DNA of 64,000 nucleotides from an uncultured Gemmatimonadaceae bacterium (GCA_963761305.1 CAVXGK010000002.1:2816001-2880000), one strand, 5' to 3'. Shown: positions 10,389 through 44,931, counted from the first letter of the stretch. Made by a program: numbers and translations. The notes: a model not told the origin generated them from the sequence alone.

Positions 10389-10401
10389 CACCGGAGCGAC
10401 A

Positions 10402-10881: not shown

Positions 10882-12107
10882 TCGGCGGCCGGAAGGACTT
10901 CCCGCTCCTCGCGGCGAATCCCGATCTGCACTACCTCGATTCGGCGGCCACGTCGCAGAAGCCGCGTGCCGTGCTCGACGCGATGCTCGAGTATTACACG
11001 CGCGACAACGCCAACCCGCACCGGGGCGCGTACGCGCTCTCGGCGCGCGCCACCGAGCGGTATCACGACGCGCGAATTCGCGTCGCGCGGTTCATCGGCG
11101 TCAAGGACGCCGATCGCGTCATCTTCACGCGCGGCACGACGGAGTCGCTGAACCTCGTGGCGGCGGCGTGGGGACGCGCGAACGTGCGTGCCGGCGACGA
11201 GATCGTCGTCACGGGGCTCGAGCACCACGCCAACTTCGTCCCGTGGCAGCAGCTGGCCATCGAGAGGGGCGCGATGCTGCGCATCGCGCAAATCACGAGC
11301 GACGGACGCATCGACGTCGACCACTTCGCGTCGCTCGTCGGGCCGCGCACGAAGGTCGTCGCGTTCCCGCACGTCTCGAACGCGCTGGGCACGATCAACG
11401 ACGTCGCGCAGTTGAGCGCGATCGCGCGGAAAGTCGGCGCGGTCGTCGTGTGTGACGGCGCGCAAGCCGCGCCGCACTTCCGGCTCTCGATCGATCAGCT
11501 CGACGTGGACTTCTACGCGTTCAGCGGCCACAAGATGCTCGGGCCTATGGGATGTGGGGTCTTGGTCGGGCGACGAGAGCTACTCGAGGCGATGCCGCCG
11601 TATCAAACCGGCGGCGACATGATCGAGTACGTGGGCGACGAGCGGACGACGTGGAACGTGCTGCCGCACAAGTTCGAGGCGGGAACGCCGAACGTCGGCG
11701 ACGCGGTGGGGCTCGCGGCGGCATGCGACTATCTCGCCGCGATCGGCATGGACGAAATTCGGAAGCACGAGCGCGCCCTGACGGCGCTCGCGTCGTCGAA
11801 GCTCAGCAACGTGCCCGACGTTCGAATCTTCGGACCGTCGCCCGAGCAGCGGAGCGGCGTTGTGAGCTTTGCCGTCGGCGGGATCCATCCCCACGACCTG
11901 GCGACAATTCTGGACGAGGATGGAGTCTGCATTCGCGCGGGGCACCACTGCGCCCAACCGCTCATGCGCCGGCTCGAAGTCCCGGCGACGGCGCGCGCGT
12001 CGTTCTACCTCTACAACGACGAGGCGGACGTCGACGCGCTCGTGGCCGGCGTCCAGCGAGCTCGCGAGGTGTTCGGCGTGGTCGACGCGAGCGCCGCGCC
12101 TATTTGA
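10878..12107 (+). CDS. sufS: Cysteine desulfurase SufS (group II)
   Basis: YLDSAATSQKP, EHHAN, FSGHKM, FEAGTP, RAGHHCAQP; ATGA overlap with sufU. Confidence 0.97.
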   Translation: MIGGRKDFPLLAANPDLHYLDSAATSQKPRAVLDAMLEYYTRDNANPHRGAYALSARATERYHDARIRVARFIGVKDADRVIFTRGTTESLNLVAAAWGRANVRAGDEIVVTGLEHHANFVPWQQLAIERGAMLRIAQITSDGRIDVDHFASLVGPRTKVVAFPHVSNALGTINDVAQLSAIARKVGAVVVCDGAQAAPHFRLSIDQLDVDFYAFSGHKMLGPMGCGVLVGRRELLEAMPPYQTGGDMIEYVGDERTTWNVLPHKFEAGTPNVGDAVGLAAACDYLAAIGMDEIRKHERALTALASSKLSNVPDVRIFGPSPEQRSGVVSFAVGGIHPHDLATILDEDGVCIRAGHHCAQPLMRRLEVPATARASFYLYNDEADVDALVAGVQRAREVFGVVDASAAPI

Positions 12108-22700: not shown

Positions 22701-22895
22701 CAGTCGGAACTCGCGCAGGAATCGGTCGGCGGCGACGCTCTCCGCGAGCTCACGGTGCAGGACCTTGAGCGCGACGGGCTTCGATGTCTCGCTGTCGGTC
22801 GCGAGATACACGGTTGCCGTACCACCGCGACCGAGCTCGCGCTCGATCGTGTAGCGATTCGCGAACATACCGGACGGTTGTGTCTGCGAGTCCAT
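19755..22895 (-). CDS. Membrane Ser/Thr protein kinase with large helical/TPR-like extracytoplasmic region
   Basis: LGRGGTATVY, VALKVL, IHRDVKPENIL, DFGIARG, GTPAYMSPEQ; TM at FAVGVVVLAAVSAYGV; TPR-like segments after it. Confidence 0.95.
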   Translation of the reverse strand: MDSQTQPSGMFANRYTIERELGRGGTATVYLATDSETSKPVALKVLHRELAESVAADRFLREFRLNAALRHPHVTPILDSGQFDRDLYLVMPHMEGGSLRLRLEKERQLSVDAVVEVVRSIGSALQHAHERGLIHRDVKPENILFSGDRAYLSDFGIARGMERSTGDSTTSSGIVRGTPAYMSPEQASGDHHLDGRTDQYSFGCVVYEMLAGLPPFHGPTQESTIALRFRHAPRAINVYRPSVPRGLERVIEKAMSLAPADRYANMGEFVKAFEAAVAEPPGSVGPERSTSHADRRRALLKFAVGVVVLAAVSAYGVTRFWLGRTGLPTDSTQIVVFPAETGAIVANGGSPQELFHTALRRWQGLHVVAIDRTLDAFARRRAGRLTLDDMNAIATSLGARRFIVVKSVQTPTGPALFAEYRDVQDGSLYSAQMELPVEPSHIATTYATLADSMVLRGQSDGGPSGGLGPRHLFATQAFIRAADARQEWSLARADSEIELALSLDARFSRAYLWQAQQGSWRGFPAQRWIVSAERALRDTAALTSQERSMAYALAYLGHGQYPEACATYRSLVRADSMNFVGWYGLGECNRNDHIVVADRRSPSGVRFRASLQEAITSYRRSFQLIPSTYRGFQQDGYGRLRRLLFIDGNAWSPGSFLGDPSRTFWGIGAVAGDSIVFVPWPRGDVTSQRVSNTSPPAVVMRLRTIFDTVVTRWANTFPRSAGTKEALAISMELRGDPTALDTMQAAERLATDPAERLRLAVSRLSMWFKLSASGSGAGLSRVATSADSLLANTPPRTPQIAGLLAPIAAMTGRCALTERLLRQSAPSLASEDAQLPRDVLADIVGLEGVVYAGCRPKDVWRRLDDISGRLPSAVSDLSQQRDYMQLNVIVRSIVPPDSAWVERLANAGRTLVAERQLAERKPDSARIQLTSVARARRGALPGQVTADAVVAEAEVWLVMSDTAHAIASLESALGTARQATSLITDDPRYNTGRLGFLIQAYALHALLLAGRNPARALRSATVAATMWRNADEGLRPQTARLGQIIR

Positions 22896-30029: not shown

Positions 30030-31031
30030 ATGCGTTGGATCGGCCTCGTGGGGTTGCTGCTGGTCAGTGCGTGCGGACGCTGGGCGTGGGTGCCGCCCTC
30101 GTCGCTTCCGCGAGCGACCACCATCCCCAACGGCACGATCCGCCAGGACTTGTTCGTCGCACCGTCGCTCGGCGTCGCGAAGCATGTCGTCATATATCTG
30201 CCGCCATCGTACGCGCACGACACGACGCGGCGATATCCCGTCGCGTACTATCTCCACGGCCTGTCGGGTTCGGAATCGGATTGGGTGGCGAAAGGCGGCA
30301 TCGACGCCGCGGCCGACTCGCTGTTCACGCGCGGCACGCCGGAGATGATCATCGTCATGCCCGACGGCGACGACGGCTGGTACACGACGTGGGTGAACCA
30401 GCTGGCGTACCGCACGTGCGCCGACACGCTGCACGGAGAGGCGCCCCAGTCGTATTGCGTCAAGCACCAACGCTACGACGACTACATCGCGCACGACGTC
30501 GTGCGGTACGTCGACGACCGCTACCGCACGCAGGCGGACCGCCAGCACCGCGGGATCGGCGGTCTGAGCATGGGCGGCTACGGAGCGCTCAGCATCGCGC
30601 TGCGCTTCCCCGACGTATTCAGCGCGGCGGCGAGTCATTCGGGCGTCGTGTCGCCGATGTACGTCGGCCCGCATCCGTTCGCCGAACCGGTCAAGTACGC
30701 GACCGACGGGGAGATCGCACGCCCCGCGGCCGCGACATACTTGGCACGCTATCAACTGTACTGGGGCACTGACCTCGAGCGCTGGCGCGCCGCCGATCCC
30801 GCGCACGAGGCGGAGCTCGTGCAGAAGCACGGCGCGCGAATGCCGGCGCTGTTCATCGACTGCGGGACCGAGGACGCGCTCGTCGATCAGAACCGAGCGC
30901 TACACGCCGAGCTGTCGCGTCTCGGCGTGCGGCACGAGTACGCCGAGTGGCCCGGCGCGCACACGTGGCGCTACTGGAGCACGCACGTGCGCGAGAGCTT
31001 GGCGTGGATGGGAAAACGAATTGGAGAGTGA
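30030..31031 (+). CDS. Exported alpha/beta-hydrolase (putative esterase), possible lipoprotein
   Basis: VSAC lipobox; YLPPSY, YYLHG, GLSMGG nucleophile elbow, DCGTED, GAHTWRYW. Confidence 0.9.
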   Translation: MRWIGLVGLLLVSACGRWAWVPPSSLPRATTIPNGTIRQDLFVAPSLGVAKHVVIYLPPSYAHDTTRRYPVAYYLHGLSGSESDWVAKGGIDAAADSLFTRGTPEMIIVMPDGDDGWYTTWVNQLAYRTCADTLHGEAPQSYCVKHQRYDDYIAHDVVRYVDDRYRTQADRQHRGIGGLSMGGYGALSIALRFPDVFSAAASHSGVVSPMYVGPHPFAEPVKYATDGEIARPAAATYLARYQLYWGTDLERWRAADPAHEAELVQKHGARMPALFIDCGTEDALVDQNRALHAELSRLGVRHEYAEWPGAHTWRYWSTHVRESLAWMGKRIGE

Positions 31032-31060
31032 ATCGCCGGTGGACGGTAGGGCGGAGCGCG

Positions 31061-31315
31061 TCAGTTCGCCGCGCGGAAGCCTTCGGCGGTGAGCGCGCTC
31101 ATCACGCGAGAGCGGAGATCGGTGCTGATCTGCAGGTGAGGGCGAGCGGCGGCGACGGCGTCGAGGAACGCGTTCGCGAAATCAAAGTGCGAGTGGCAAT
31201 TGCCGCAGATCTCGAGGTGACGAACGATTCGCTCACGCTCCTCCTCGGAGAGCGCGCTATCGAGGTACGGCCACAGCCGCATGACGACGAATTCACATTC
31301 TGAGCGACTAGCCAT
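31061..31315 (-). CDS. Zinc-binding anti-sigma factor (zf-HC2/ZAS, RsrA/RshA-like)
   Basis: C...LWPYLD..L....RERIVRHLEICGNC (HxxxCxxC); 84 aa, no TM; overlaps the end of the sigma gene. Confidence 0.92.
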   Translation of the reverse strand: MASRSECEFVVMRLWPYLDSALSEEERERIVRHLEICGNCHSHFDFANAFLDAVAAARPHLQISTDLRSRVMSALTAEGFRAAN

Positions 31316-31943
31316 GGCGGCGCTCCGGAATCGGACGAAAAGGCATTGGTGTCGGCCATGTCAAGGCGGTCGATGTCTTGAATCCCGCGTCGATCGCGTA
31401 GTCGATGAGGGATTCCTGAAGTTGTCGCCGCGCGCGGTAGAGGCGGGATCGCACGGTGCCAATCGGGATGTCGAGCGCGACGGCGACCTGCTCGTACGTG
31501 AAGTCGTCCACGTCCACCAACGTCACGACGTCGCGGTAGTGCGGCTCGAGCGCGGCGATGGCGTCGGCGATCGCCGGCCCGAGGTCGAGACGGCTGAACA
31601 TGCCGTCCAGATCGCTGGCTTTGGCGCGGTCGTGTTGACGCGTCGCCGCGAGGTTCTCGAGCTCCTGATCATCGGCCACGATTGATTTGGCGTCGCGGCG
31701 CTTCTTCTCGGCGAACACGTGGCGGCAGATGGTGGAGAGCCAGGCCTTGCAATCCGAACCGGGCAGGAACGTGTGCCAGTGCCGATACGCGCGCAGAAAG
31801 GTCTCCTGCACGAGATCGTCGGCGTCGGCCGGATCCTGCGCCAGCGCCGCCGCGACGCGCGCGATCGTCGGAAGCAGCGGTAGCGCCGTCTCCGCGAACT
31901 CTCGGTCGCGATCAGAAGTCGTTGGAGGCGCTGGTGGTGGCAT
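31308..31943 (-). CDS. ECF sigma-70 factor (SigR/SigH-like)
   Basis: DADDLVQETFLRAY, KAWLSTI, YRDVVTLVDVDDFTYEQVA, PIGTVRSRLYRAR. Confidence 0.95.
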   Translation of the reverse strand: MPPPAPPTTSDRDREFAETALPLLPTIARVAAALAQDPADADDLVQETFLRAYRHWHTFLPGSDCKAWLSTICRHVFAEKKRRDAKSIVADDQELENLAATRQHDRAKASDLDGMFSRLDLGPAIADAIAALEPHYRDVVTLVDVDDFTYEQVAVALDIPIGTVRSRLYRARRQLQESLIDYAIDAGFKTSTALTWPTPMPFRPIPERRHG

Positions 31944-31952
31944 CGTGAGCAG

Positions 31953-31978
31953 AACGGTGTGGGCTTGCAGAGAGTTCC
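31953..31978 (-). promoter_or_regulatory. SigR-type promoter GGAAC-N18-GTT upstream of the sigma gene
   Basis: GGAAC TCTCTGCAAGCCCACACC GTT, ending 9 nt before the ATG. Confidence 0.75.
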
Positions 31979-32034
31979 GTTGCGAGTGGACGGCTGAGCC
32001 GGAGACGTCGACGTCAGACGTCTGACATCTGACG

Positions 32035-32991
32035 TCAGATTTCTCGATTCACGCCGTTAGCCTTCCGGTCCACCGGTTCACCCGCTGTCGCCACCTCGAA
32101 CGCCGCGTTCGCCAGATCCGCGATTGGCGTCGGAACGCCGTGCTGGCGACCCAAGCGTCGCACCGTGCCGGCGAGCAGATCCAGCTCGGTCGGTCCGCCT
32201 CGCTCGAGATCCAACAGAAAACTCGGCTTGATCGTCGGGCCGATGGCGAAGAGATCGTCGCGCACCTTCGCTTCGTCGGCGTCGTCGAGCGTGCCGGCGA
32301 CCGCTCGCGCGACCATCACGACTTCGTGGAGCGAACCGGTGAGCAGCTTGCGCCCCGAATCCGTCGCGAGCACGGGGCCCATCGGCTGACGCGACAGACC
32401 GCACGCGATTCCCATCGAGACGATGAACGAAAATTTCCGCCAGATGTCGCGCGTGATGTCCGGGCTCAGCGTCGCGGTCGAACCGGCGCCGGCGAATGCG
32501 TCGACGATGCGCGACGTCCGCTCGCTCGTCGGTCGGTCGAATTCACCGATCGTGACACGATCGCCCGGACTCTTCCGCTGCACGACGCCCGGCTCGGGGC
32601 GGACGAGACTCGCGTGAATGATTCCGCCGACGATCGCCGGGCTTGGAACACCGAGCCCCGCGAGCCGTTCCGCGACGTCGGCGCCGTTGAGCAACGGTAC
32701 GATCGTCGCGCCGTTCTTCGCCGCGCCGACGAGCGCCGGGCCGACCTCGTTCAGCGAGTAGCTCTTGACCGACACGATTACGTAGTCGCATTTGGCGACG
32801 ATGCTGCCGTCGTCCGACACCTCGGGCCGTACGACGAACGAACCGTCGAGGGTCCGCACCTCGAGACCGCGCTGTCGCATCGCGGTCAGATGCTCGCCGC
32901 GGGCCACCAGGCGAACCTGATGACCCGCGCGACACAACGTTCCCGCGTAGTAGCTGCCGATCCCGCCCGCGCCGACGACGCCGATGTCCAC
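32035..32991 (-). CDS. panE: 2-dehydropantoate 2-reductase (ketopantoate reductase family)
   Basis: VVGAGGIGSYY, ARGEHL, VKSY, LLNG, WRKF, KPSFLLDLERG, ELD, VPTP. Confidence 0.85.
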   Translation of the reverse strand: MDIGVVGAGGIGSYYAGTLCRAGHQVRLVARGEHLTAMRQRGLEVRTLDGSFVVRPEVSDDGSIVAKCDYVIVSVKSYSLNEVGPALVGAAKNGATIVPLLNGADVAERLAGLGVPSPAIVGGIIHASLVRPEPGVVQRKSPGDRVTIGEFDRPTSERTSRIVDAFAGAGSTATLSPDITRDIWRKFSFIVSMGIACGLSRQPMGPVLATDSGRKLLTGSLHEVVMVARAVAGTLDDADEAKVRDDLFAIGPTIKPSFLLDLERGGPTELDLLAGTVRRLGRQHGVPTPIADLANAAFEVATAGEPVDRKANGVNREI

Positions 32992-33004
32992 GCGGTGCGC
33001 GCCG

Positions 33005-33592
33005 TTACTTCTTCGCCGGCGCGGTGAAGAGGTACGCGTACTGCCCGTACCCTTCCTCGACGAGCTTCGACGCCGGAATGAAACGCATCGACGCCGAGTT
33101 CATGCAGTAGCGCATGCCGGTGGGACGCGGGCCGTCGTCGAACAGGTGGCCGAGGTGCGAGTCGGCGTGAGCGGAACGCACTTCGGTGCGCACCATGCCG
33201 AGCGTGCGGTCGCTCTTGGTGGTGACGTTCTCGGGAACGAGCGGTTTGGTGAAGCTCGGCCAACCGGTGCCGGATTCGAATTTGTCGGTCGAGCTGAAGA
33301 GCGCCTCGCCCGACACGACGTCGACGTAGATGCCCGGCTCGTGGTTGTCCCAATACGCGTTCTGGAAAGGACGCTCGGTCGCTTCGTGCTGCGTGACCTC
33401 GTACTGGAGCGGCGTGAGCTCCTTCTTCAGACTGTCGTCGGACGGCTTCTTGTAGTTGTTCATGGAATGGCTACCCGATTGGGCCAGCTTGGTGGTCTGG
33501 GCGGAGAGACCGCTCGCGATCATCGGCAGCGCGGCCATGGCCGCAGTAGCAACGACTCCGGCGAGCCGCGAAACACGCATACGTTCGAGCAT
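33005..33592 (-). CDS. msrB: Peptide-methionine (R)-S-oxide reductase MsrB with signal peptide
   Basis: [46 protein letters not shown]-terminal signal ending LSA-Q; GAGG RBS. Confidence 0.96.
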
Positions 33593-33633
33593 ATCGATTC
33601 CTCGGTGGAACGCGTCTAAATCCTCGATATCAA

Positions 33634-33659
33634 AACTGGTCGGCGCAGCGTTTGGTTCC
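33634..33659 (-). promoter_or_regulatory. SigR-type promoter GGAAC-N18-GTT upstream of msrB
   Basis: GGAAC CAAACGCTGCGCCGACCA GTTTTGA. Confidence 0.75.
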
Positions 33660-33780
33660 ACTTTGAATAAGTTACGCCGACCGGCGAGGGGCGGTATCCG
33701 GCTGTATCCGGTTATAGTACGCCCGTGGAACGTCCAGCGGATCTCGGGCGTCGTGGGCTCACCCCTAAGCGGAGCTAGCC

Positions 33781-34611
33781 GTGGCAGTCACGATCGATCC
33801 TGGCCTGGCGCAGACGCTCAGCGACGCTCGCCTGCAGCTGCACCATGCGGCGCAGCTCGCCACGGCCACCGGCATCTCGTATCTCCCCGCGCAGCCCGAC
33901 GACAGCCATACCAACCTGGAATGGATCGAGGCCCTGCGCGCGCTCGCCGGGCACGTGATTCCCGCACCTCAGCCGTTTCGCGCCGTCGTGCAACCGGCCG
34001 ACCTCTCGCTCTCGATCGTCGGCGAGGACGGACAGATCGTCACGTCGAAGCTGCTCAACGGTCAGACGATGAACGACGCGGCCGATTGGCTTCGCGCGCG
34101 GATCGCCGAACGCGGCGCCGACGGCGATCATCTCACGCTCGAGCGCCACTACGAGATTCCCGCGCATGCCGTGGACGACGGCGCGACGTTCGAGACGAAA
34201 AATGCCGCCGCGTTCGCGCAACTCGATGCGTGGTACTTCGCCGCGAACCGCGCGCTGGAGTACGTCCGCGGGTCCACGCCTGGCGCAAGCGAGATTCGCT
34301 GCTGGCCGCACCACTTCGACATCGCCACGCTGATCGACGTCGGTAAGGGTCGGAGCATCGGCGTCGGCATGGAGCCGGGCGATCAGTACTACGACGAACC
34401 GTATTTCTACGTGAACATGTCTCCGTCGCCGAAACCGGCGGCCGCCACGGCGTCGCTCTCCGGCGGCGGCACCTGGCACACCAAGGAGTGGGTCGGCGCG
34501 GTACTGCCCGGTTCACGAATCGCGGATGCCGATTCGGCGAAAGACCAGGTTCATGCGTTTCTCGATTCGGCAATCGTGGCGTGTCGGGAACTGCAAGACG
34601 CTGTGGCCTGA
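33781..34611 (+). CDS. Hypothetical protein (DUF5996-like)
   Basis: [42 protein letters not shown] before GTG. Confidence 0.75.
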
Positions 34612-34660
34612 CGCCGTCCGGCGTGCGCGACTCGCACCTACGACGGACGAGCAAATGTTG

Positions 34661-34753
34661 ACACAGATGCCGCAGACAAAAACAACAATTCCGCAGATAA
34701 ACCCGTTGGGATGTCATCTGCGGAATTGCCGTCCAAATCTGCGGCATCTGTGT
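34661..34753. repeat. Nested inverted repeat between convergent genes
   Basis: Perfect 16-bp outer stem ACACAGATGCCGCAGA/TCTGCGGCATCTGTGT and perfect 13-bp inner stem CAATTCCGCAGAT/ATCTGCGGAATTG. Confidence 0.88.
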
Positions 34754-34788
34754 TGAATTCTCTTCTACGCCACGTCGTGCCCGTGCAC

Positions 34789-35970
34789 TCAGCCGGAATG
34801 CTCGGCGATCGCGGGCGCGCCCTCGTCCACGCCCAGCTCCTCAGCCACCATCCGGTGCGCCTTGCGCCCGCCGCGCGCCGTTGTGTGGGGCGCTTCCTCG
34901 TGATCGAGTAGCAGCTGCGCCGTGTCCACCGCGCGCGCCACGAGACTGCGCGCGCCTTCGCGCAATTCCGGACTCATCTGAACCGCGCGAGTGTTGTTCT
35001 CCATGTCTTCTGCCGTCCAGCCGCGCGAGTGGGCGATGTACGGAAACTGCGGAAAGTGGCATCCGATCTCGGCGAAGAAGCCCAGCATTTGTCCCGCCAC
35101 CGCCTGCACGTTGTCCTGTCCGCCCGTGATGATGAACGACGCGACCTTGTTTCGAAGGAGGACGCGGTTCGCGATCGTCACCTGGTTCTGAACGCAGTTC
35201 ATTCGCTCGACCATGCGATAGTAGAGCGAGCTGGCGTTGCCCCAGCGGATCGGCGTGGCAACGAGCACCACGTCCGCCCAGTGAACGATCGCCTCGTACA
35301 CGACCTCCATCTGATCCTTCGGATCCATCTGCGTGATGGAGCACGGCCACGTGCAGGCGTGCGCGCTCTTCGAGTAGTAGCCCTCGCACGGACGAAAACG
35401 CAGCCCCGCCAGATGAATCGTCTGCGTGTCGACGTCGAGCTGCGTCGCCGCGTGATGAATCGATTCGGCGAGCAGATCATCCGACGTGGAGTAGCGCGGA
35501 TTCTTCATGTCCATGTTCGTCGTCGAGATGCCGAGCACGCGCACTCGACCCGGCGAGCGCTCGATGCGGCGGGCGACGGGATGCGGCGGATGCGACCCGC
35601 GCGTCCGCTTCGTCACCGCAGACGACGACACGAACAGCCGTCCGTCGGCGACCTTCACGTTGTACGACGGAACCGCGTCGATCTCGAACCCGGGCTCGCC
35701 GAGTCCGGTCTGGAAATGGTATTTCCAATTGTGCCACGGGCAGGTGACGTACTCGCCGTCGATGCGGCCGTCGGCGAGCGGACCGCCTGCATGATTGCAC
35801 ACGCCCGACAGCGCGCCGAACGCCTCACCGACGTGCGTGACGGCGACTTTCAGATTGTTCACCGTCACCGCGGTGAGGGGACGTTTCGCGAGATCCGCCG
35901 TCGCGCCGACGTCGATCCAGTCCCGATTCGCGGGCGACGATTCTTCCCCGCCCCCCGTCGGCTCGCTCAC
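34789..35970 (-). CDS. Rieske [2Fe-2S] ferredoxin fused to a flavodoxin-fold FMN reductase/iron-sulfur flavoprotein domain
   Basis: CNHAGGPL...CPWH Rieske motif; then RPCEGYYS...CTWPC, ADVVLVATPIRWG, ERMN, NKVASFIITGGQD; GTGA overlap with egtD. Confidence 0.9.
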   Translation of the reverse strand: MSEPTGGGEESSPANRDWIDVGATADLAKRPLTAVTVNNLKVAVTHVGEAFGALSGVCNHAGGPLADGRIDGEYVTCPWHNWKYHFQTGLGEPGFEIDAVPSYNVKVADGRLFVSSSAVTKRTRGSHPPHPVARRIERSPGRVRVLGISTTNMDMKNPRYSTSDDLLAESIHHAATQLDVDTQTIHLAGLRFRPCEGYYSKSAHACTWPCSITQMDPKDQMEVVYEAIVHWADVVLVATPIRWGNASSLYYRMVERMNCVQNQVTIANRVLLRNKVASFIITGGQDNVQAVAGQMLGFFAEIGCHFPQFPYIAHSRGWTAEDMENNTRAVQMSPELREGARSLVARAVDTAQLLLDHEEAPHTTARGGRKAHRMVAEELGVDEGAPAIAEHSG

Positions 35971-36944
35971 GACGCGGCCGTCATCGCACCAACCCAGAAG
36001 AGTTCGTTCGCGTCGGTCCACAGGCGGTCGAGGCGGAAGCCGGCCGCGCTGGCCACCGTCGCGAGCTGCTCTTCGTCGTACTTGTACGACGATTCGGTCC
36101 AGATCGTCTCGCCCCGCGCGAAATCGAACGTGCTCCCCGCGACGTGCACCGACTGGTCGCGCGTGCTCTCGAGATGCATCTCGATGCGGCTCGCGTCGTC
36201 GTTGAAGAACGCGACGTGCCGGAAACTCGCCAGATCGAAGTCGGCGCCGAGCTCGCGGTTGATGCGGCGCAGTACGTTGCGGTTGAACGCGGCCGTCACG
36301 CCCTGCGGATCGTCGTACGCGGCGTGCAGCACGGCGGCATCCTTCCGGCGGTCGACACCGATCACCAACGCGCCGCCCGTTCCCACCGTGCGCCGAACGC
36401 GGGTGAGAAACGCCGCCGCCTCGGCCGGATGGAAATTGCCGATCGTCGATCCCGGGAAAAACGCCACGCGGCGCGCGTGCGGCGGGAGGCTCGGCAGCGG
36501 GAGGAGTCGCGTATAGTCGCCGCAGATCGGACGCACGGCGAGCGCCGGATAGTCCGCTTCGAGATCGGCCGCCACACGCGACAATTGCTCGCGCGAGATG
36601 TCGATCGGAACGTACGCCGCCGGATCGCGCAACGCGTCGAGCAGGAAGCGCACCTTCGTGGCCGCGCCGCTGCCGTACTCGATCAACGCGGCGCGCGGTC
36701 CGATGAAATCCGCGATCTCGCCCGCACGCGCGCGCAGAATCGAGAGCTCGCTGCGCGTGAGATAGTACTCGTCGAGCTTGCAGATGCGCTCGAAGAGCCG
36801 AGCGCCCACCTCGTCGTAGAAGAGCTTCGGCGGGAGCGTCTTTCGCGTCGCGCCCAGTCCCGCGAGCACGTCGGCGAGGATCTCGCTCGTGTCGAACTGC
36901 GGCGCGACGTGTGTCGCGCGCTGCGGATTCATCGACGCGCTCAT
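35967..36944 (-). CDS. egtD: L-histidine N-alpha-methyltransferase EgtD
   Basis: KTLPPKLFYD, EYYLTRSE, IEYGSG, PIDIS, FPGSTIGNF, AAYDDPQGVTAAFN, RIEMHL, TESSYKY. Confidence 0.97.
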   Translation of the reverse strand: MSASMNPQRATHVAPQFDTSEILADVLAGLGATRKTLPPKLFYDEVGARLFERICKLDEYYLTRSELSILRARAGEIADFIGPRAALIEYGSGAATKVRFLLDALRDPAAYVPIDISREQLSRVAADLEADYPALAVRPICGDYTRLLPLPSLPPHARRVAFFPGSTIGNFHPAEAAAFLTRVRRTVGTGGALVIGVDRRKDAAVLHAAYDDPQGVTAAFNRNVLRRINRELGADFDLASFRHVAFFNDDASRIEMHLESTRDQSVHVAGSTFDFARGETIWTESSYKYDEEQLATVASAAGFRLDRLWTDANELFWVGAMTAAS

Positions 36945-38218
36945 GTGTTCTTGGCCAGACGCACGCCCATGAACTGCCAGCGCGCGTCAGACGGGAAAAA
37001 GTTTCGATAGCTGATGCGTGCATGCGACCGTGGAGTCGCGCACGACGCGCCGCGCAACACCCACTGGTCGCACATCCATTTGCCGTTGTACTCGCCGAGT
37101 GCTCCGGCCGACGGCGCGTAGCCGGGATACGCCGTGTACGCGCTCTGCGTCCATTGCCACACGTCGCCGTACAGCTGGCGCAACGAGTCGCCCCCAGCGC
37201 GCGCCGGCCGCGCCGGCGTCGGATGAAAGTGGCGCGCGTCGACGAACTCGCCGTCCACTCTCTGACTCTTCGCCGCGATCTCCCACTCGGCTTCCGTCGG
37301 CAGGCGAGCGCCGGCCCAGCGCGCGAAGGCGTCGGCCTCGTAGTAGCTCACGTGACACACCGGCGCGCCGGGATCCACCGCGTGCGTGCCGGCCAACGTG
37401 AACTCTGTCCAGCCGTCCGGCGTACGCTCCCAGTAAAACGGCGCTTCCCAGTTCGACGTGCGCACCGTCGCCCAGCCGTTCGACAGCCACAGCTCGGGGC
37501 GATGATATCCGCGGTCGTTCATGAACTCGAGCCATTCGCCGTTCGTCACGAGTCGATCCGCGACGCTGAACGCTTCGACGTACACGCGATGCGCCGGCGA
37601 CTCGTTGTCGAACGAAAATCCGTCGATCTCGTGGCCGATGCGATGAATGCCCGCCGTCACGCCGACCCAGTTCGCGGCGTCGCTTGCGTGCGACGTGGCG
37701 CGACGCGTGATGTACGCCGGCCGCAAAGGATTCGTCCAGAACACGTGCTTGATGTCGGTGAGCATCAGCTCCTGGTGCTGCTGCTCGTGGTGCAGCCCGA
37801 GCTCGATCACTGGAACCGCCGGATGATGCGAGTCGTCGCCGATGCGCTCGACCAGCGCGCGCAACGCCGCGTCCACGTGGGCGCGATACGCGAACACCTC
37901 GGCCACTGTCGGGCGAGTGACCAGGCCACGCTGCGCACGACAGTGGCGCTCGCCGGCCTGCACGTAGTACGAGTTGAACAGGAACGCGTACTTCGGATTC
38001 GGCGTGACGTACGTCGGATCGAATTGCGCCAGCACGAACGTCTCGAAGAACCAGCTGGTGTGCGCGAGGTGCCACTTCGTAGGACTCACGTCGGCCATCG
38101 TGCTCACGACGTAGTCTTCCGTCTCGAGCGGGGCACACAGCGCTTCGGTCTGCGCGCGCACCTCGATGCAGCGATCGAGCAAAGCCGGCGTGGCGGCGCG
38201 TACGTCGAGAATGGTCAT
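36941..38218 (-). CDS. egtB: Ergothioneine sulfoxide synthase EgtB
   Basis: SPTKWHLAHTSWFFETF, FLFNSYY, HEQQHQEL, FDNE, RLPTEAEWE, EYNGKWM, SYRNFF; ATGA overlap with egtD. Confidence 0.96.
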   Translation of the reverse strand: MTILDVRAATPALLDRCIEVRAQTEALCAPLETEDYVVSTMADVSPTKWHLAHTSWFFETFVLAQFDPTYVTPNPKYAFLFNSYYVQAGERHCRAQRGLVTRPTVAEVFAYRAHVDAALRALVERIGDDSHHPAVPVIELGLHHEQQHQELMLTDIKHVFWTNPLRPAYITRRATSHASDAANWVGVTAGIHRIGHEIDGFSFDNESPAHRVYVEAFSVADRLVTNGEWLEFMNDRGYHRPELWLSNGWATVRTSNWEAPFYWERTPDGWTEFTLAGTHAVDPGAPVCHVSYYEADAFARWAGARLPTEAEWEIAAKSQRVDGEFVDARHFHPTPARPARAGGDSLRQLYGDVWQWTQSAYTAYPGYAPSAGALGEYNGKWMCDQWVLRGASCATPRSHARISYRNFFPSDARWQFMGVRLAKNT

Positions 38219-38266
38219 ACCATCCAAACCCCCAAAACCGTTCTGTGCAGCCCCCGAACCCGTCAA

Positions 38267-38292
38267 AACCGATACGGCCGCCTCAAAGTTCC
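38267..38292 (-). promoter_or_regulatory. SigR-type promoter GGAAC-N18-GTT upstream of egtB
   Basis: GGAAC TTTGAGGCGGCCGTATCG GTTTTGA, with the same extended -10 as msrB. Confidence 0.75.
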
Positions 38293-38296
38293 AGAT

Positions 38297-39541
38297 TCAT
38301 CGGCGGCGCGCTGTGATCAACGTGGCTACTTCGTCCGGTCTCGGGTTGATGAAATCGAGACGGACTCGGCCGTCGGGCAGCGTGGTCACGGTCGCGGGGA
38401 TCGCGCTGTTGGTGAGCACCCAACCGGCGGGGAGCACAACCGCATTCGACGGCCGGCCGAAACTGCGATCCCACACGAGCTCGTCGCCGACGAGCTTATA
38501 ACGCGCCGTGTCGGTGTAGGTCTCGAACATTCGGAGCCGGATCGATTCGCCAGGCTTCACCGCCGCGAAACGGAACACTACGATCTCCAATTCGGGAGTG
38601 ACGTTGCTGACGCCGAGGTTGGCGCGCGAGATGGCTTCGCCCTTGAGGATCTCGAACTTGAGCGGCTCGCCCGTGTCGAGGTTCATCGCGCGCGGGCCCG
38701 ATACCGCGCTCCCCGCGCGCACCTCGTTGATGTATGTGCCAGTTCCGGGCCGCGATTCCGTGTAATCGTGATACAAGTCGAACGCGTGGGTCTCGGGCTG
38801 CTGGAGGAAGTACACGATCTCGCGATTCTGGCGGGCGCGATCGCCGAGGCGTGACGCGACACTGGACGTCGTCGCGCCGGACACTTTCGGGCCGACGCGC
38901 ACCGCGCGCATCATCAGCGGCGCTTCAGCCGGGGTGTTGTTCCAGAACGTGATGCCGATCCGACCGTCGTTCTCCTGCAGCACCTGCGACGGGAAGTTGC
39001 ACGACACCAGCTCATATCCTTTGGGCAGCACGACGGCGTTGCGTTTGATGCCGAGCGGCCGGCTGAACACGATCGTGTCGCCGCGCAGGAGATAGCTCGA
39101 CGCGTCCTCGTACGTCTTGTCGATGAGCAGCCGCGCTTCGCCTCCATCCGCGGGCACCGGATGCGTGAGCTTGACGCGGATGTAGGTCTGCGTCGTGTCC
39201 TGGCTGCGCACGCCGCCGTCGCGCGCCGCCGCCGCGCCGACGACGTCGAACTGGAGCGGCTTGCCGGTTGCGCGATCGCTCACGCTTTCGTTGCTGGCGA
39301 CGCTTCCCTTGCGAATCGGATTGAAGAAATACGTCGCGCCCGCGGTGGTCGCGGTGACTTCGTAGATGATTCGAAACTTGGCCGAGCCGGGCTCGAGCAG
39401 TTCGTAGCGCGTGTATTCGTCGGATTCCGTTTGGCGCGCCTGCGCCTCGACCGAACGCGGGGTCGAGGCCGTCATGACGCACGCGACGATCAGCGACGCC
39501 AGCACACGGAAAAGTCCAACGGCACCACGACGACGTCTCAT
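38297..39541 (-). CDS. Exported hypothetical protein with two tandem homologous beta domains
   Basis: Signal peptide; TGKPLQFDV/TGEPLKFEI, KTYED/ETYTD, NAVVLPKGY/NAVVLPAGW, DGRIGITFWN/DGRVRLDFIN. Confidence 0.85.
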   Translation of the reverse strand: MRRRRGAVGLFRVLASLIVACVMTASTPRSVEAQARQTESDEYTRYELLEPGSAKFRIIYEVTATTAGATYFFNPIRKGSVASNESVSDRATGKPLQFDVVGAAAARDGGVRSQDTTQTYIRVKLTHPVPADGGEARLLIDKTYEDASSYLLRGDTIVFSRPLGIKRNAVVLPKGYELVSCNFPSQVLQENDGRIGITFWNNTPAEAPLMMRAVRVGPKVSGATTSSVASRLGDRARQNREIVYFLQQPETHAFDLYHDYTESRPGTGTYINEVRAGSAVSGPRAMNLDTGEPLKFEILKGEAISRANLGVSNVTPELEIVVFRFAAVKPGESIRLRMFETYTDTARYKLVGDELVWDRSFGRPSNAVVLPAGWVLTNSAIPATVTTLPDGRVRLDFINPRPDEVATLITARRR

Positions 39542-39615
39542 CGCTCCCCTCGGATGGTCCGGGGCGTTGAACCTACGGTGGCCCTGACGGGTCCGCCATC
39601 CTATCTTCGTCGCCC

Positions 39616-41247
39616 ATGACGACAGCGACGGCGGTCGACGCGCCCCGCCCGCGCTACGCGTGGGCGACGACGGGTGACATCAACGCGTTCTTCGGGCTGA
39701 TGCTCGACAACGTCGTGAATCTCGCCGTGCTCGCGGGCATTCTCGTCGCCGGCTTCGGATTTCCGGCGACGCTCGTCTACACGCGAATGTTTCCGGGCAC
39801 CGCGCTCGGCGTGTTGTTCGGCGACGTCGTGTACACGGTGATGGCCATTCGGCTCGCGCAGCGGACCGGCCGCGACGACGTGACGGCGATGCCGCTCGGT
39901 CTCGACGCGCCGTCCACGATCGGCATGGCGCTCACCGTACTTGGTCCGGCGTTTCTCGTCGCGAAGACGAAGATGCCGGCGGCCGACGCGGCCATCGCCG
40001 CGTGGCAGGTCGGCATGGCGACGATGGTGCTGATGGGTGTGTTCAAGCTCGTCATGTCGTTCATCGGCGACCGCGTGCGGCGCGCGATTCCCGAAGCCGG
40101 ATTGCTCGGCTCCATCGGCGGCGTGGGGATCGCACTCCTCGGCACGTTGCAGCTGGGCGAGATCTACGGCGAGCCGATCGTCGGCATGATGGCGCTCGGG
40201 ATCATTCTCTACGCGCTGGTCGCGAAGCTGCGCCTTCCGATGCGCGCGCCGCAGGTGCTGGCGAGCGTCGTCGTCGGGGCCGCGCTCTACTACGGACTCG
40301 GTGCCGCCGGATTGCTGGTGCACCCGGTCGCGGTGCCGGCGGCGAACTTTCCGATGGGCGCGCCGCTGCCGTCGTTAGGGTTCTTGAAAGGCATGCCGGT
40401 CGCGGTGCACGACTACCTGCCGCTCGCGCTTCCCTTCGCGATCCTCACCGTGATCGGCGGCATCAACGTCACCGAGAGCGCGCGCATCGCGGGCGACGAC
40501 TACAACACGCGCGACATCCTGCTCACCGAAGCGATCGCGACGCTGATCGCCGGCGTGTGCGGCGGCGTGAGCCAGTCGACGCCGTACATCGGGCATCCGG
40601 CGTACAAGGCGATGGGCGGACGGGCCGGATACACGTTGGCCACCGGACTGTTCATCGGACTGGGCGGCATCTTCGGCTACATCGCGTTCATGGCCGACGC
40701 GTTGCCCAAACCCGCGCTGGCGCCGATTCTCGTATTCGTCGCGCTCGACATCACGGAGCAGAGCTACATCGCGACGCCCAGGCGCCACGCCGCGGCGGTC
40801 ACGCTCGCCGTATTTCCGAGCGTCGCGCAGCTGGTACAGATCTTCTTGTCGCAGACGTATAACGGCGCGCTGATGTCGGCCGCGATCGATCCCGTCGGTA
40901 CGATGAAGGCGACCGGCCTCACCAACCCGGACTTCATTTCAACCGTCGCCGTGATGGTGATGCTCGCGCACGGGTTCATTCTCACGGCCATGCTCTGGGG
41001 CGGCGGGCTGGCGTTCTTGATAGACCGGCGCATCACCGCCGCCGCGACGACCTTCGCGGCGTGCGCCGTGCTCGCGTTTTTCGGATTCATTCATTCCGTT
41101 ACGCCGGCCGGCGGCATCTATCTGCCGTGGCGCGCGGGATCGGCATTGCCGTATCACTGGGCCGCGGCGTATCTCGGGTTCGCGATCCTCATCATGATCC
41201 TCGGGAACACGCGAGCCGCGCGCGAGCAACCCGTTCTCGTGCATTGA
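39616..41247 (+). CDS. Multi-pass permease (xanthine/uracil, AzgA-related family)
   Basis: GDINAFFGL, DVTAMPLGLDAPS, TESARIAGDDY, TPYIGHPAYKAMG; more than 12 TM helices. Confidence 0.85.
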   Translation: MTTATAVDAPRPRYAWATTGDINAFFGLMLDNVVNLAVLAGILVAGFGFPATLVYTRMFPGTALGVLFGDVVYTVMAIRLAQRTGRDDVTAMPLGLDAPSTIGMALTVLGPAFLVAKTKMPAADAAIAAWQVGMATMVLMGVFKLVMSFIGDRVRRAIPEAGLLGSIGGVGIALLGTLQLGEIYGEPIVGMMALGIILYALVAKLRLPMRAPQVLASVVVGAALYYGLGAAGLLVHPVAVPAANFPMGAPLPSLGFLKGMPVAVHDYLPLALPFAILTVIGGINVTESARIAGDDYNTRDILLTEAIATLIAGVCGGVSQSTPYIGHPAYKAMGGRAGYTLATGLFIGLGGIFGYIAFMADALPKPALAPILVFVALDITEQSYIATPRRHAAAVTLAVFPSVAQLVQIFLSQTYNGALMSAAIDPVGTMKATGLTNPDFISTVAVMVMLAHGFILTAMLWGGGLAFLIDRRITAAATTFAACAVLAFFGFIHSVTPAGGIYLPWRAGSALPYHWAAAYLGFAILIMILGNTRAAREQPVLVH

Positions 41248-41760: not shown

Positions 41761-44700
41761 TTAGCGCGCCTCGACGTCGCTCAGACGAGCCAAACGTTTA
41801 CGAACGTCCGTCACCTGCGGCTGCAGCGCGGGATCGGCGTTCTTCCACAGGTCGAGGAATTTCGCATAGTAGTGCGCAGCCTTCGCGCGGTCGCCCTTCG
41901 CTTCAAACAACTCGCCGAGCCGTTTGTACGAGCCGGCGAGAAAAAATCGGTCCTGCTGGTAGCGTTGGAGAATCGACGTCGAATTCACATATCGCGTGAA
42001 CGCCTCGATCGCCGAATCGGGCATTTGCGCGAGGTCGAACGCCAAGCCCGTCGCGGGCAGGCGGCAGACCGTGCAATTCCCGATATCCGCAGCCTCCGAC
42101 TCGTGCGCCGAATCCAGATATCGGTGTTCCGCCATCGCAATCATACTCTCGATGGCGTGGCGCGTCCGAGACGCCGCCTCCTGCGTGTAGGCCGGCGAAA
42201 TCCGATCGAACTCCGTGAGCATGGACCGCGCGAGATCCGGCTTGCCCATCAAGGCGTACGCTTGCGCCAGGCCGCCGTACGGTCGATCGAGCGGCTGAAA
42301 ACTCGTCAGAGGCACGCGCCTCAGCGCATTCTGCACCATCGCGAGCGCCTTCGCCGTGTCATTGAGGAACCAAACGGCAACCAGCGCCGAGTCGACCGCG
42401 GACCCGAGCGCGGATTGCACATTGCCTTGCGCAATGTTGTACGCGGTGTTCAGCGCGGCCAGTCGCATCCCTTCGGCGATTTGGCCGCGCGTCGTCGCGA
42501 CGATGCCGGCGACCCCATTGCGTTGGGCCTTGAGGAACTCATCCGTCGGATTCGCCACGGACAGGGAATCCATGAATGCGATCGTGCTGTCGTACTGCCC
42601 GCGCGCGAACAAGTACGTCGCCCGGCCCATCGCGACGCGCGGATTGTTGGCGGAGACCTTCAATACAGTAGCTGCCGTCGAGTCCACCGCCGACCACTTT
42701 CCGAGCTCCGCTTCGTTGGTGATCAAGTTGTTGTAGCTCGTGACCGCCGCGGGATTCGACGCGACCGCCCGCCGCAACAACGCCGCGGCCGAATCGAACT
42801 GTCGCTGATTCGCGTAGAGCAAGGCGAGGTTGTTGAGCGCCGCAGCCTGCGTCGGCCGGATCGACAGCAGCTTCTTGTAGGCATCGGCCGCCTTCGTCTC
42901 GTTGGGATGCGGCCCCTGCGTCCAGTACGTCGCCACCGCGAGCCAGCGCTCCACTTCCGGCAAGCGCGCGGTGTCCGCGTACGCCCGCTCCATCGCCGCG
43001 ATTTGACCCTCACGGTCCAACCCGCGATTCGAGAGCGCGACGGCGAGGGCGCGATAGGCCGACGCGAATCCCGTGTCGATCTTCACGGCTTCCTTGAACA
43101 ACGGAATCGCCTTGTCGGGGTCACCCTGAGTCATCGCGCGCTGCGCCGCAGTGTACTTCTCCAGGGCATCGATCGACGCGGTCGTGACCTGAGCGAGTTC
43201 GGCCGACGCCTGCACGTGTTTGAGCGACTCGCCCATTTGCCGCCGCAGCGACCGCGTGAGACCGCCGATCGTCGGGATGAGATCCCTCGCGCCATTCGCG
43301 CTGCCGGTGAGCAACGCGAGATTCTGGCCGGAGTCCGCGCCGACCAGGCGCATCGTGACGACGAAGCCGCCGCTCGCCAGCGAATGGACTTCGCCGGTGA
43401 CGATCGCCTTCGCGCCCTCGCGCCGCGCCACGACGCGCGCCACCGCCGTGTCGATCGGTGTGTTCGCCGCCCGCTGCATGAGCTGGAGATCCGCGGCCAC
43501 CGCCTGCGGCGTGATGATCGAAATGACCGGCGACTGCCCGAGGTCCGCCCGAACCGCCTCGGCAATGACGCTCCCGAGCGTGGTGTCGGATCCGGTCGAT
43601 GCGAAATCGCCGATGAGAATCTTGTCGCGGTCGTGCAGCTGGCCGCTCGCCATGAGCGACTTGAGCGGGCCGAGTCCGAGCGGCCGTAGCAGCATGAGCA
43701 CGACGACGAGCAGCGCGAAGCTGCCGATCGCGCTCGCCATGAATCCGCCGGCGTGCCGCCAGGAGAGGTACGGACTCGCCCGGACCGCGATCGTCGACAT
43801 CGTCGCCGGCGCGGAGGCGGATGCCGTCGCCGTTCGAGGCGTCGACGCGGTAGCCCGACGCGTCACACGCTGCACGTAGGCCGTCGCGAGGATGACCGGA
43901 ATGCCGAACGCCATGATCCCGATCGTCGCCGGCACGACCCAATCCGGAACGCCGAACGCGACTTCCGCCGCCTTCGCAAGAATGACCGCCGCGGCGAACG
44001 CGACGACGTAGCTGATCGACGCACGCCGAAGACCTCCCGGACGGCTCGCGCCCGACAGCGACGCCGTCGAACCCGTCGACACGGCGTCGAGCACGCGCGC
44101 GATGTCGGCGGCGCTCTGGGGCCTCGCGTCCGGATCCTTTTCCAGACACTGCATGACGACGTCGGCGAGCACCGCCGGCGTGTCGGGACGCGGATCGAGA
44201 ACGGGCTGCGGCTTCGTGCCCATGTGCGCCGCGAGCAGCTTGTGCGGCGATGGCTCGTTGAACGGCGGCCGACCGGTCAGCATCTCGTACGCCATGCAGC
44301 CGAACGAGTAGATGTCGGCGCGATGGTCCGTGCTCGGATCCGCCGCGGCCTGCTCGGGCGCCATGTACGCCGGCGTTCCAATCGACATGCCGAGCTGCGT
44401 CAGCGCGCCGGCGGGAGATCCGGCGAGCGTGTCCGGCGCGCGGGCCGCGGTGATGGCTTTCGCGATTCCAAAATCGGTGACCGTCGCCGACGCGCCGCTG
44501 ATCAGCACGTTGTCGGGCTTGATGTCGCGATGGACGACCCCGCGCTCGTGCGCGTAGGCCAACGCGCGCGACACGTCGCGCAAATAGCTCACGCACTCGG
44601 CGATCGGGATCGGGCCGGCGGCCAGCCGCGCGCGAAGCGACTGGCCGTCGATGAACGGCATCGTGTAGAACGGCACGCCGTCCATCTCGCCGGCCGTGAG

Positions 44701-44931
44701 CACGGGCACGATGTGCGGATGCTGCAGGTTCGCCGCGACCTGGATCTCGCGATTGAACCGGTCGACGTTGACGCCCGCGCCGAGCTCCGCCGGCAGCACC
44801 TTGATCACGACCTTGCGGCCGAACGCGGTTTCCGTCGCCGCAAACACGCGCGACATGCCGCCGCCGCCCAGCTCGCGATCGATCTGGTATGCGCCGCCCA
44901 GCAGCGTCTGGAGTTGTTCGCGAAGCTCCAT
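41761..44931 (-). CDS. Membrane Ser/Thr protein kinase with TolB-like and TPR domains
   Basis: LGGGGMSRVF, HRDIKPDNVL, DFGIAKA, GTPAYMAPEQ; about 3 TM helices; many TPRs; ends FLDLWKNADPALQP. Confidence 0.96.
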   Translation of the reverse strand: MELREQLQTLLGGAYQIDRELGGGGMSRVFAATETAFGRKVVIKVLPAELGAGVNVDRFNREIQVAANLQHPHIVPVLTAGEMDGVPFYTMPFIDGQSLRARLAAGPIPIAECVSYLRDVSRALAYAHERGVVHRDIKPDNVLISGASATVTDFGIAKAITAARAPDTLAGSPAGALTQLGMSIGTPAYMAPEQAAADPSTDHRADIYSFGCMAYEMLTGRPPFNEPSPHKLLAAHMGTKPQPVLDPRPDTPAVLADVVMQCLEKDPDARPQSAADIARVLDAVSTGSTASLSGASRPGGLRRASISYVVAFAAAVILAKAAEVAFGVPDWVVPATIGIMAFGIPVILATAYVQRVTRRATASTPRTATASASAPATMSTIAVRASPYLSWRHAGGFMASAIGSFALLVVVLMLLRPLGLGPLKSLMASGQLHDRDKILIGDFASTGSDTTLGSVIAEAVRADLGQSPVISIITPQAVAADLQLMQRAANTPIDTAVARVVARREGAKAIVTGEVHSLASGGFVVTMRLVGADSGQNLALLTGSANGARDLIPTIGGLTRSLRRQMGESLKHVQASAELAQVTTASIDALEKYTAAQRAMTQGDPDKAIPLFKEAVKIDTGFASAYRALAVALSNRGLDREGQIAAMERAYADTARLPEVERWLAVATYWTQGPHPNETKAADAYKKLLSIRPTQAAALNNLALLYANQRQFDSAAALLRRAVASNPAAVTSYNNLITNEAELGKWSAVDSTAATVLKVSANNPRVAMGRATYLFARGQYDSTIAFMDSLSVANPTDEFLKAQRNGVAGIVATTRGQIAEGMRLAALNTAYNIAQGNVQSALGSAVDSALVAVWFLNDTAKALAMVQNALRRVPLTSFQPLDRPYGGLAQAYALMGKPDLARSMLTEFDRISPAYTQEAASRTRHAIESMIAMAEHRYLDSAHESEAADIGNCTVCRLPATGLAFDLAQMPDSAIEAFTRYVNSTSILQRYQQDRFFLAGSYKRLGELFEAKGDRAKAAHYYAKFLDLWKNADPALQPQVTDVRKRLARLSDVEAR

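Follow-up and report, generated by a model that had tools for sequence, protein, structure and literature searches.

The closest described counterparts of the system reported here are the SigR-RsrA pair of Streptomyces coelicolor and the SigH-RshA pair of Mycobacterium tuberculosis (Mtb), which belong to group ECF12 of the extracytoplasmic function (ECF) sigma factors. In both, the gene for a soluble zinc-finger (ZAS) anti-sigma factor lies directly downstream of the sigma gene, the promoters are of the GGAAY-N18-GTT type with the motif also found before the sigma gene itself, and the targets, dozens of dispersed genes, include methionine sulfoxide reductase and the pathway of a low-molecular-weight thiol, mycothiol. 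Beyond Actinobacteria and the general stress response of alphaproteobacteria, little has been reported on how ergothioneine synthesis is regulated. Here, a similar locus was analyzed in a 64,000-nt stretch of DNA from an uncultured soil Gemmatimonadaceae bacterium (the window; contig C2:2816001-2880000 of genome G000, 5.2 Mb, 66% G+C). Its SigH/SigR-like ECF sigma factor probably transcribes four neighboring units, namely its own gene, msrB-panE, a DUF5996-like gene, and an egtB-egtD-Rieske/FMN operon, from GGAAC-N18-(G/C)TTyTG promoters, and a ZAS anti-sigma factor would hold it inactive until released, likely by thiol oxidation. Induction may then raise ergothioneine and the activity of the methionine-R-sulfoxide reductase MsrB, which is predicted to be exported. 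If so, a switch of a known type would be wired in a new way, with a SigH/SigR-like pair connected to ergothioneine and methionine-sulfoxide repair. In contrast to the two actinobacterial pairs, the system lies in another phylum, its sigma factor forms part of a separate clade, and its regulators score below the curated family cut-offs; the predicted targets are apparently four adjacent units, the thiol is ergothioneine instead of mycothiol, the -10 element reads (G/C)TTyTG, and one of four RsrA redox determinants is kept. The genome had been taken from the sequence alone as apparently non-actinobacterial, and the nearest public records of the sigma gene are indeed from Gemmatimonadaceae. In the following, G-numbers denote genomes (G000 is this genome, the others are congeners) and L-numbers denote fetched loci of relatives. 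The genes and predicted promoters of the island are listed below.

31061..31315, minus strand: soluble zinc-finger (ZAS) anti-sigma factor, 84 aa (Pfam zf-HC2, E 2.7e-10)
31308..31943, minus strand: ECF sigma factor, 211 aa, SigH/SigR-like (Pfam Sigma70_r2 and Sigma70_r4_2)
31953..31978, minus strand: predicted autoregulatory sigma promoter, GGAACTCT-...-CGTTCTG (motif match)
32035..32991, minus strand: ApbA/PanE-family oxidoreductase, 2-dehydropantoate 2-reductase type (TIGR00745, 194 bits, cut-off 141.35)
33005..33591, minus strand: MsrB, methionine-R-sulfoxide reductase (TIGR00357, 201.2 bits, cut-off 113.05)
33630..33659, minus strand: predicted msrB-panE promoter, GGAACCAAAC-...-GTTTTGA (motif match)
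33727..33752, plus strand: weaker, divergent predicted promoter of the DUF5996-like gene, GGAAC-N18-GTC (motif read)
33781..34611, plus strand: DUF5996-like protein, 276 aa (Pfam DUF5996, 23.9 bits, just below the cut-off of 25)
34789..35970, minus strand: fusion of Rieske [2Fe-2S] and NADPH-dependent FMN reductase/flavodoxin-like domains, 393 aa (Pfam Rieske 5.6e-14, FMN_red 3.6e-10)
35967..36944, minus strand: EgtD, L-histidine N-alpha-methyltransferase, 325 aa (TIGR03438, 405.1 bits, cut-off 290.9)
36941..38218, minus strand: EgtB, ergothioneine sulfoxide synthase, 425 aa (TIGR03440, 571 bits, cut-off 360)
38263..38292, minus strand: predicted egtB-egtD-Rieske/FMN promoter, GGAACTTTG-...-GTTTTGA (motif match; begins 4 nt past the stop of the upstream gene)

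The 3' end of the sigma gene overlaps the start of the anti-sigma gene by 8 nt, and the 84-aa zf-HC2 protein encoded there carries H-x3-C-x2-C, which bears out the soluble HxxxCxxC anti-sigma factor that a first, sequence-only reading had placed after the sigma factor. The ApbA/PanE-family gene sits downstream of msrB, and the DUF5996-like gene, which starts with GTG, is divergent from msrB. The N-terminus of MsrB is hydrophobic and signal-peptide-like, an extension that is missing in three relatives (L036-L038). What had been read as an egtB-egtD-Rieske fusion proved to be three separate genes (36941-38218, 35967-36944, and 34789-35970) with 4-nt overlaps, in which egtD lies in another frame and the GTG start of the Rieske/FMN gene, the last of the egt operon, overlaps the egtD stop. 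A 744-aa open reading frame at 34789-37023 (-) was rejected as such a fusion, being a high-G+C frame artifact that crosses egtD in the other frame and runs into the Rieske gene.

The motif GGAAC-N18-GTT occurs exactly where the sequence-only reading had it, at 31953-31978, 33634-33659, and 38267-38292, in each case on the minus, coding strand, and the msrB and egtB promoters have GTTTTGA in common. The DUF5996-like gene likewise has the weaker GGAAC-N18-GTC, at 33727-33752 (+), with 28 nt between it and the GTG. GTT lies 42 nt from the msrB ATG (33591) and 48 nt from the egtB ATG (38218); before the sigma ATG (31943), it ends at a distance of 9 nt, and a leaderless mRNA is therefore predicted for the sigma gene.

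The real support for the motif is its conservation in relatives, not raw counts. Sigma orthologues with 60-83% identity are present in 14 of 24 sampled congeners, and the island is syntenic, with some losses, in 13 fetched loci, in the order anti-sigma, sigma, panE, msrB, DUF5996-like, Rieske/FMN, egtD, and egtB. GGAAC-N17-19-[GC]TT in the sense orientation was found within 200 nt upstream of the sigma gene in 8 of 14 loci, of msrB in 8 of 13, and of egtB and the DUF5996-like gene in 10 of 12 each, and under the same rule it was found before none of the panE (0/12), egtD (0/12), Rieske (0/10), or anti-sigma genes (0/14) or the genes upstream of egtB (0/9). Conservation of the motif upstream of the egtB and msrB orthologues, by which the sequence-only reading had proposed to check it, was seen for both: GGAAC lies at -70 to -133 of egtB in 13 of 15 island-type loci (three further loci included), and GGAAC(C/T)(A/T)A... 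precedes msrB in 14 of 15 loci scored, as well as in L038 by eye. At the DUF5996-like gene, GGAAC is present in 14 of 14 loci, and relatives hold GGAAC-N18-(G/C/A)TT(T/C)NG where the window has GTC. The sigma gene has its own GGAACTCT...CGTT(C/T)(C/T)G promoter in the window and six close relatives; in other relatives it lies directly next to panE, and the msrB promoter would serve it as well. The gene of a 51%-identical Gemmatimonadaceae sigma factor (L048) also has a similar element, GGAACTCTC-N18-CTT, before it. The consensus from the relatives' listings reads GGAAC-N18-(G/C)TT(T/C)NG, and in distant relatives the flanks around the boxes no longer align. The refined motif GGAAC-N18-(G/C)TTyTG and the gene cluster are thus conserved across the genus.

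Congeners that differ in gene content provided a second line of comparison. The genomes G018, G023, and G046 have egtBD orthologues (71-75% identity) and neither the island nor a sigma orthologue; G018 and G023 hold only a 48%-identical sigma paralogue, and G046 yielded no sigma match at E <= 1e-30. Between -70 and -133 of egtB, where island genomes have the motif, it was found in none of these three genomes; in G042, G021, and G014, all with the sigma orthologue, GGAAC-N17/18-GTT stands before egtB. G006 and G009 contain the sigma and msrB genes with no egtB orthologue. Among five congeners without the sigma gene, the Rieske/FMN gene was found in none, and the DUF5996-like gene in one, at 47% identity and without the motif. 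These comparisons showed that the motifs appear to have been gained and lost together with the sigma gene. Outside the genus, none of 80 loci of sigma relatives had egtB, egtD, or msrB within 10 kb. The module forms an accessory island.

The sigma factor has the ECF architecture, with regions 2 and 4 only (Pfam), and a PDB search ranked Mtb SigH first (E 1.5e-27), followed among other sigma factors by SigE (4.6e-20). In a quick maximum-likelihood tree (113 rows, SH-aLRT support only), it fell in a Gemmatimonadota clade (SH-aLRT 99) that contains an island clade (98) and a paralogue clade (99). This clade stands beside the Actinomycetota SigH/SigR clade (92) inside a superclade (99) that also includes Bacteroidota, Ignavibacteriota, Myxococcota, and others; the outgroup, eight other ECF sigma factors of the same genome, was not set apart by any single branch, and the superclade is apart from six of the eight. 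The placement therefore indicates a duplication of a SigH-like gene within Gemmatimonadota, from which the module may have arisen, and not a recent transfer from Actinobacteria. The ECF12 entry in the supplement of PMC7826278 gives the group as 88.8% Actinobacteria, plus Bacteroidetes, Proteobacteria, Chlorobi, Ignavibacteriae, and others; Gemmatimonadetes are not among the phyla in that entry, nor does it name an egt or msr context.

The sigma paralogue, 45-48% identical, occurs in all genus members sampled. In G000, the 45%-identical copy (C1:1408046-1410084; L138-L140) has no adjacent anti-sigma gene and is convergent to OsmC-like and rhodanese genes. In a Gemmatimonas metagenome-assembled genome (L047:8420-10830), a sigma/ZAS pair of the orthologous clade directly follows genes for cytochrome b561 and a molybdopterin oxidoreductase, a periplasmic oxidoreductase pair; this is a hint that envelope oxidation repair is the older theme of the sigma clade.

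The motif in the window equals in architecture the Mtb SigH consensus GGAAYR-N17-GTT, for which tolerance at each -10 position has been described (PMC4803200). In SigH, R186 and S182 contact G-34 and G-33, M181 contacts -31/-30, W81, I85, and N88 make up the T-10 pocket, I91 and N92 read G-11, and the extended -10 element is GTTNNNS (PMC6411747). Alignment with SigH places R170, S166, W68, and I72 of the island sigma factor at R186, S182, W81, and I85, all invariant in 11 orthologues; M181 (R165), N88 (H75), and I91/N92 (A78/E79) are not kept. We infer that GG and TT are read as in SigH and that the readers of G-11 differ, which fits the variable G/C at the first -10 base. Two region 2 cysteines, C65 and C73, flank the -10-binding W68 and I72; they are invariant in the 11 orthologues and also present in the C1 paralogue, at positions where SigH has leucines.

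A number of findings weigh against control of all four units by the island sigma factor and its thiol-sensing partner, and they are given in this and the next three paragraphs with the alternatives on which they bear. As the relatives compared are kin, the conservation and co-occurrence counts are not independent. The best NCBIfam match of the sigma factor, TIGR02947 (SigH_actino), scores 112.9 bits, far below the cut-off of 251.55; of the SigR/SigH-like assignment made in the sequence-only reading, the kinship to Mtb SigH as the closest characterized relative stood, and membership in the curated family did not. Among non-actinobacterial sigma relatives, the motif before the sigma gene itself was found in 1 of 19, versus 24 of 46 in Actinomycetota, in a crude count for which some starts are misplaced. 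G046, which lacks the sigma gene, carries a single GGAAC-N18-CTT about 150 nt upstream of egtB.

At egtB, GGGGC replaces GGAAC in L036 and L037, with loss of the -35 box, and the first -10 base is G in six and C in seven of 13 motif-bearing loci. Moreover, just 4 nt separate the egtB -35 box from the stop of the upstream gene, which encodes a 402-aa protein (38297-39505, -), and egtB transcripts could also come from read-through. These points would suit an alternative in which the sigma factor controls only its own operon (msrB-panE-sigma-anti-sigma), perhaps together with the DUF5996-like gene, while the egtB motif is weak or non-functional and egtBD is transcribed by read-through or by a housekeeping sigma factor. 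The presence of egtBD without the island in G018, G023, and G046 and the reported loss of in vitro activity upon mutation of SigH promoters at nearly every consensus position (PMC6411747) point the same way. We nevertheless consider so narrow a regulon unlikely, as GGAACTTT and (G/C)TTyTG are kept before egtB despite unalignable flanks in L038, L039, L042, L145, and L146, and the egtB site has the highest score in the genome with the relatives-only matrix described below. In addition, C at the same -10 position also occurs in msrB promoters of distant relatives, tolerance of either G or C is plausible given that the SigH G-11 readers are not conserved here, and no sigma-70-like promoter was found in 30900-39700.

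GGAAC-type -35 boxes are used by many ECF sigma factors, and at least 15 ECF-like genes are present in this genome. A genome-wide scan for raw GGAAC-N18-GTT, such as the sequence-only reading had proposed for upstream regions, gave no enrichment (99 matches at N18 versus 88-157 at other spacings), and the strict motif alone was rejected as a regulon predictor on this ground. In the window, four matches were found versus 1.35 expected, a borderline excess in that 4 of 100 shuffles reach four; the fourth match, at 63657-63682 (+), is antisense and inside a coding region. Together with the occurrence of the sigma paralogue in all genus members sampled, these counts would be compatible with the GGAAC motifs being read by another ECF sigma factor, for example the 45%-identical C1 paralogue, or being due to chance, their adjacency to the sigma gene being coincidental. 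This is highly improbable, since G018 and G023 keep the paralogue, lack the island sigma gene, and have no egtB motif, and since the motifs stand, correctly oriented, only before the first genes of operons and before none of the internal genes, and persist where the flanks have diverged. Three of the seven matches to the refined motif in the whole genome also lie within 6.3 kb. The four promoters would thus be read by the island sigma factor and not by another ECF sigma factor.

The refined pattern, scanned as GGAAC-N18-STTYTG, gave seven matches genome-wide in G000 (three with the reversed-pattern control), three of them in the island (a 6.3-kb stretch). The corresponding genome-wide and island numbers were 6 and 3 in G005, 13 and 3 in G017, 8 and 1 in G002, and 4 and 0 in G009. 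With genes called by a purpose-built codon-usage scorer (4140 genes, 86% coverage, approximate starts), intergenic matches upstream of genes numbered 15 at N18 and 13 at N17, versus 4-8 at other spacings. For a position matrix (-35 and -10 columns), 27 distinct sites were taken from relatives alone, with none from the window. By this matrix, the egtB (28.3) and msrB (23.9) sites outscored every other intergenic site genome-wide, with 19.5 for the third-ranked site and 14.9 for the sigma promoter; because the matrix was trained on orthologues of these very sites, this ranking mainly shows that there is no comparably good site elsewhere. Other candidate targets downstream of matrix or motif sites (a multicopper oxidase, CstA, a methyltransferase, a GGDEF protein, etc.) formed no coherent set and were set aside, as was a receiver-domain-fused thioredoxin-reductase-like gene (G000 C2:37689-39344), whose orthologous upstream regions carry the motif in none of three cases. 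On account of these two results, the regulon looks small and local, with four adjacent units, and not global. Upstream of the thioredoxin-reductase-like gene, long short-tandem-repeat arrays with units of about 12-15 nt (CGCCGTTCGCC-like, by eye) were observed (G000 C2:37450-37689, L148, and L149).

The anti-sigma factor is proposed to bind the sigma factor and to sense thiol oxidation through Cys7/Cys37/Cys40, which is plausible in view of its zinc-finger residues. C7, H33, C37, and C40, arranged as C-x25-H-x3-C-x2-C, are all invariant in 13 sequences, and the 26 residues from C7 to H33 equal the distance from C11 to H37 in the alignment with RsrA. The protein has no long hydrophobic stretch. 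Its best NCBIfam match, TIGR03988 (antisig_RsrA), scores 41.1 bits, below the cut-off of 62.5, and a PDB search ranks RsiW (E 4e-4), which has been reported as redox-insensitive, above RsrA (E 0.035). The redox determinants described for RsrA are E39, E40, L45, and E46 (PMC3177212, Jung et al.), of which only the equivalent of E39 (E35) is kept, the others being I/V/Q..., H/E/A..., and S. The RsrA-like sensor of the sequence-only reading therefore holds for the Cys/His spacing, and it fails at the family cut-off and at three of the four determinants. These departures, and the statement in the ECF12 entry of the PMC7826278 supplement that ECF12 anti-sigma factors may bind different metals, favor an alternative in which the sigma factor drives all four units while the anti-sigma factor, like the redox-insensitive ZAS proteins, responds to another cue such as metal, heat, singlet oxygen, a partner protein, or proteolysis. 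We regard this as a real possibility, though well short of a probable one, because the invariant cysteines and histidine have the spacing of the RsrA zinc and disulfide ligands, the protein is small and soluble like RsrA, and the predicted targets, namely MsrB, a low-molecular-weight thiol pathway, and an NAD(P)H-type reductase, are the content expected of a thiol or oxidant switch.

Under the proposed thiol-responsive control, the main metabolic output would be ergothioneine. The best PDB match of EgtB is the Chloracidobacterium enzyme (6O6L/6QKI, E ~1e-147), with mycobacterial 4X8B at 2.6e-36, and no EgtC match was found in the genome. The best EgtE-like sequence of the genome, at 10878-12107 of the window, reached 96 bits versus a cut-off of 400 and was rejected as EgtE, being the SufS of a suf operon (6756-12107, +) that encodes SufB, SufC, SufD, a NifU-like protein, and SufS. 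EgtB type II uses cysteine directly, and the presence of EgtB and EgtD without EgtC or a true EgtE fits such a two-gene, cysteine-using route. Three ApbA/PanE paralogues of this genome, the island's PanE-like gene among them, score above the cut-off, and because of the other two, the suggestion that the island gene has a role in coenzyme A precursor supply is weak.

The remaining two island genes encode proteins of uncharacterized function. For the DUF5996-like protein, the nearest Atlas clusters partly carry DUF5996 (score 0.96), and its AF2 model (pLDDT 90.4) resembles no PDB fold clearly: Foldseek gave no match with E <= 0.001, and the highest VIA Z was 6.5, with structural-genomics hypothetical proteins. 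Comparisons of the AF2 model gave no support for a DinB-fold thiol transferase, and this candidate was rejected. The Rieske/FMN family is large and uncharacterized, with 7174 matches. Among 80 loci on soil metagenome contigs (L154-L233), the Rieske/FMN gene is accompanied by a DUF5996-like neighbor in 20 and by island-type egtD in eight, and the lineages in which the Rieske/FMN and DUF5996-like genes are neighbors include some without egt genes or the island sigma gene. The two proteins look like a conserved, uncharacterized functional pair, judging from this gene neighborhood. In 20 loci of such pairs without the sigma gene on metagenome contigs, no consistently placed motif was found. Tblastn matches to EgtB/EgtD near the pair in L193 and L202 are hints of egt linkage elsewhere; in L202, an EgtD-like methyltransferase (Pfam-confirmed) lies 1.3 kb away. 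In L180, genes for a zf-HC2 protein and a plastocyanin-like protein precede the Rieske gene.

A more speculative and quite doubtful extension is that the island forms a self-contained ergothioneine-based oxidant-defense module, in which a thiol-sensing switch would control ergothioneine synthesis and the Rieske-flavodoxin reductase and its DUF5996-like partner might use or recycle oxidized ergothioneine with NAD(P)H. If the proposed control by the island sigma factor is true, a SigH/RsrA-type disulfide-stress switch underwent duplication in Gemmatimonadota and came to serve another low-molecular-weight thiol, and the four-promoter regulon would be compact, portable, and easy to test heterologously. 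The Rieske-FMN reductase fusion and the DUF5996-like protein, both widespread and uncharacterized, would then be tied to oxidant defense, which would offer a handle on their function.

Control of egtBD by an ECF sigma factor is itself not new, as it has been published for EcfG in a sphingomonad: in Sphingopyxis granuli TFA, putative egtB-egtD is part of the general-stress regulon of EcfG (PMC7083833). As at the present locus, an ECF-type stress sigma factor there stands over a two-gene egtB-egtD pathway. However, EcfG belongs to the EcfG/ECF15 group, is controlled by NepR-PhyR partner switching instead of a ZAS anti-sigma factor, and uses another promoter motif, and its regulon is large and global (79 transcriptional units), in contrast to the local island described here. 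In mycobacteria, the ergothioneine genes egtABCDE are likewise under stress-responsive regulators, PafBC and WhiB3 (PMC8223512, PMC5430705). In contrast to the island, these regulators are not sigma factors, and the five genes act via gamma-glutamylcysteine; neither EgtC nor a true EgtE was found in G000, and its EgtB is nearest to the Chloracidobacterium enzyme. The paper on the Mtb SigH regulon (PMC4803200) contains neither "ergothioneine" nor "egt" in its main text (0 occurrences). A full-text search of papers available without subscription found none that links SigH/SigR-type factors, or Gemmatimonadetes, to the regulation of ergothioneine.

Further features of the locus concern the sequences between and around the units. 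The convergent Rieske/FMN and DUF5996-like genes are separated by the following repeat.

34661..34753, no strand assigned: 38-nt inverted repeat, 82% complementary

Four ATCTGCGG(A/C)AT-like units, spaced 21 nt apart, make up this repeat, which is likely a bidirectional terminator or a repeat element. At 32010-32044, between panE and the sigma promoter, overlapping GACGTCAGACGTC palindromes likewise recur at 21-nt spacing. Close relatives lack them in the part that aligns, and these palindromes may represent a binding site for a regulator, a terminator, or a small insertion. The 402-aa protein encoded upstream of egtB has no Pfam or NCBIfam match and contains an internal duplication, its halves being ~32% identical (tblastn); most island genomes likewise have its gene in this position. 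At a distance, the region is flanked by genes for two large Ser/Thr protein kinases, one of 1037 aa (19755-22868, -) and one of 1056 aa with TPR repeats (41761-44931, -).

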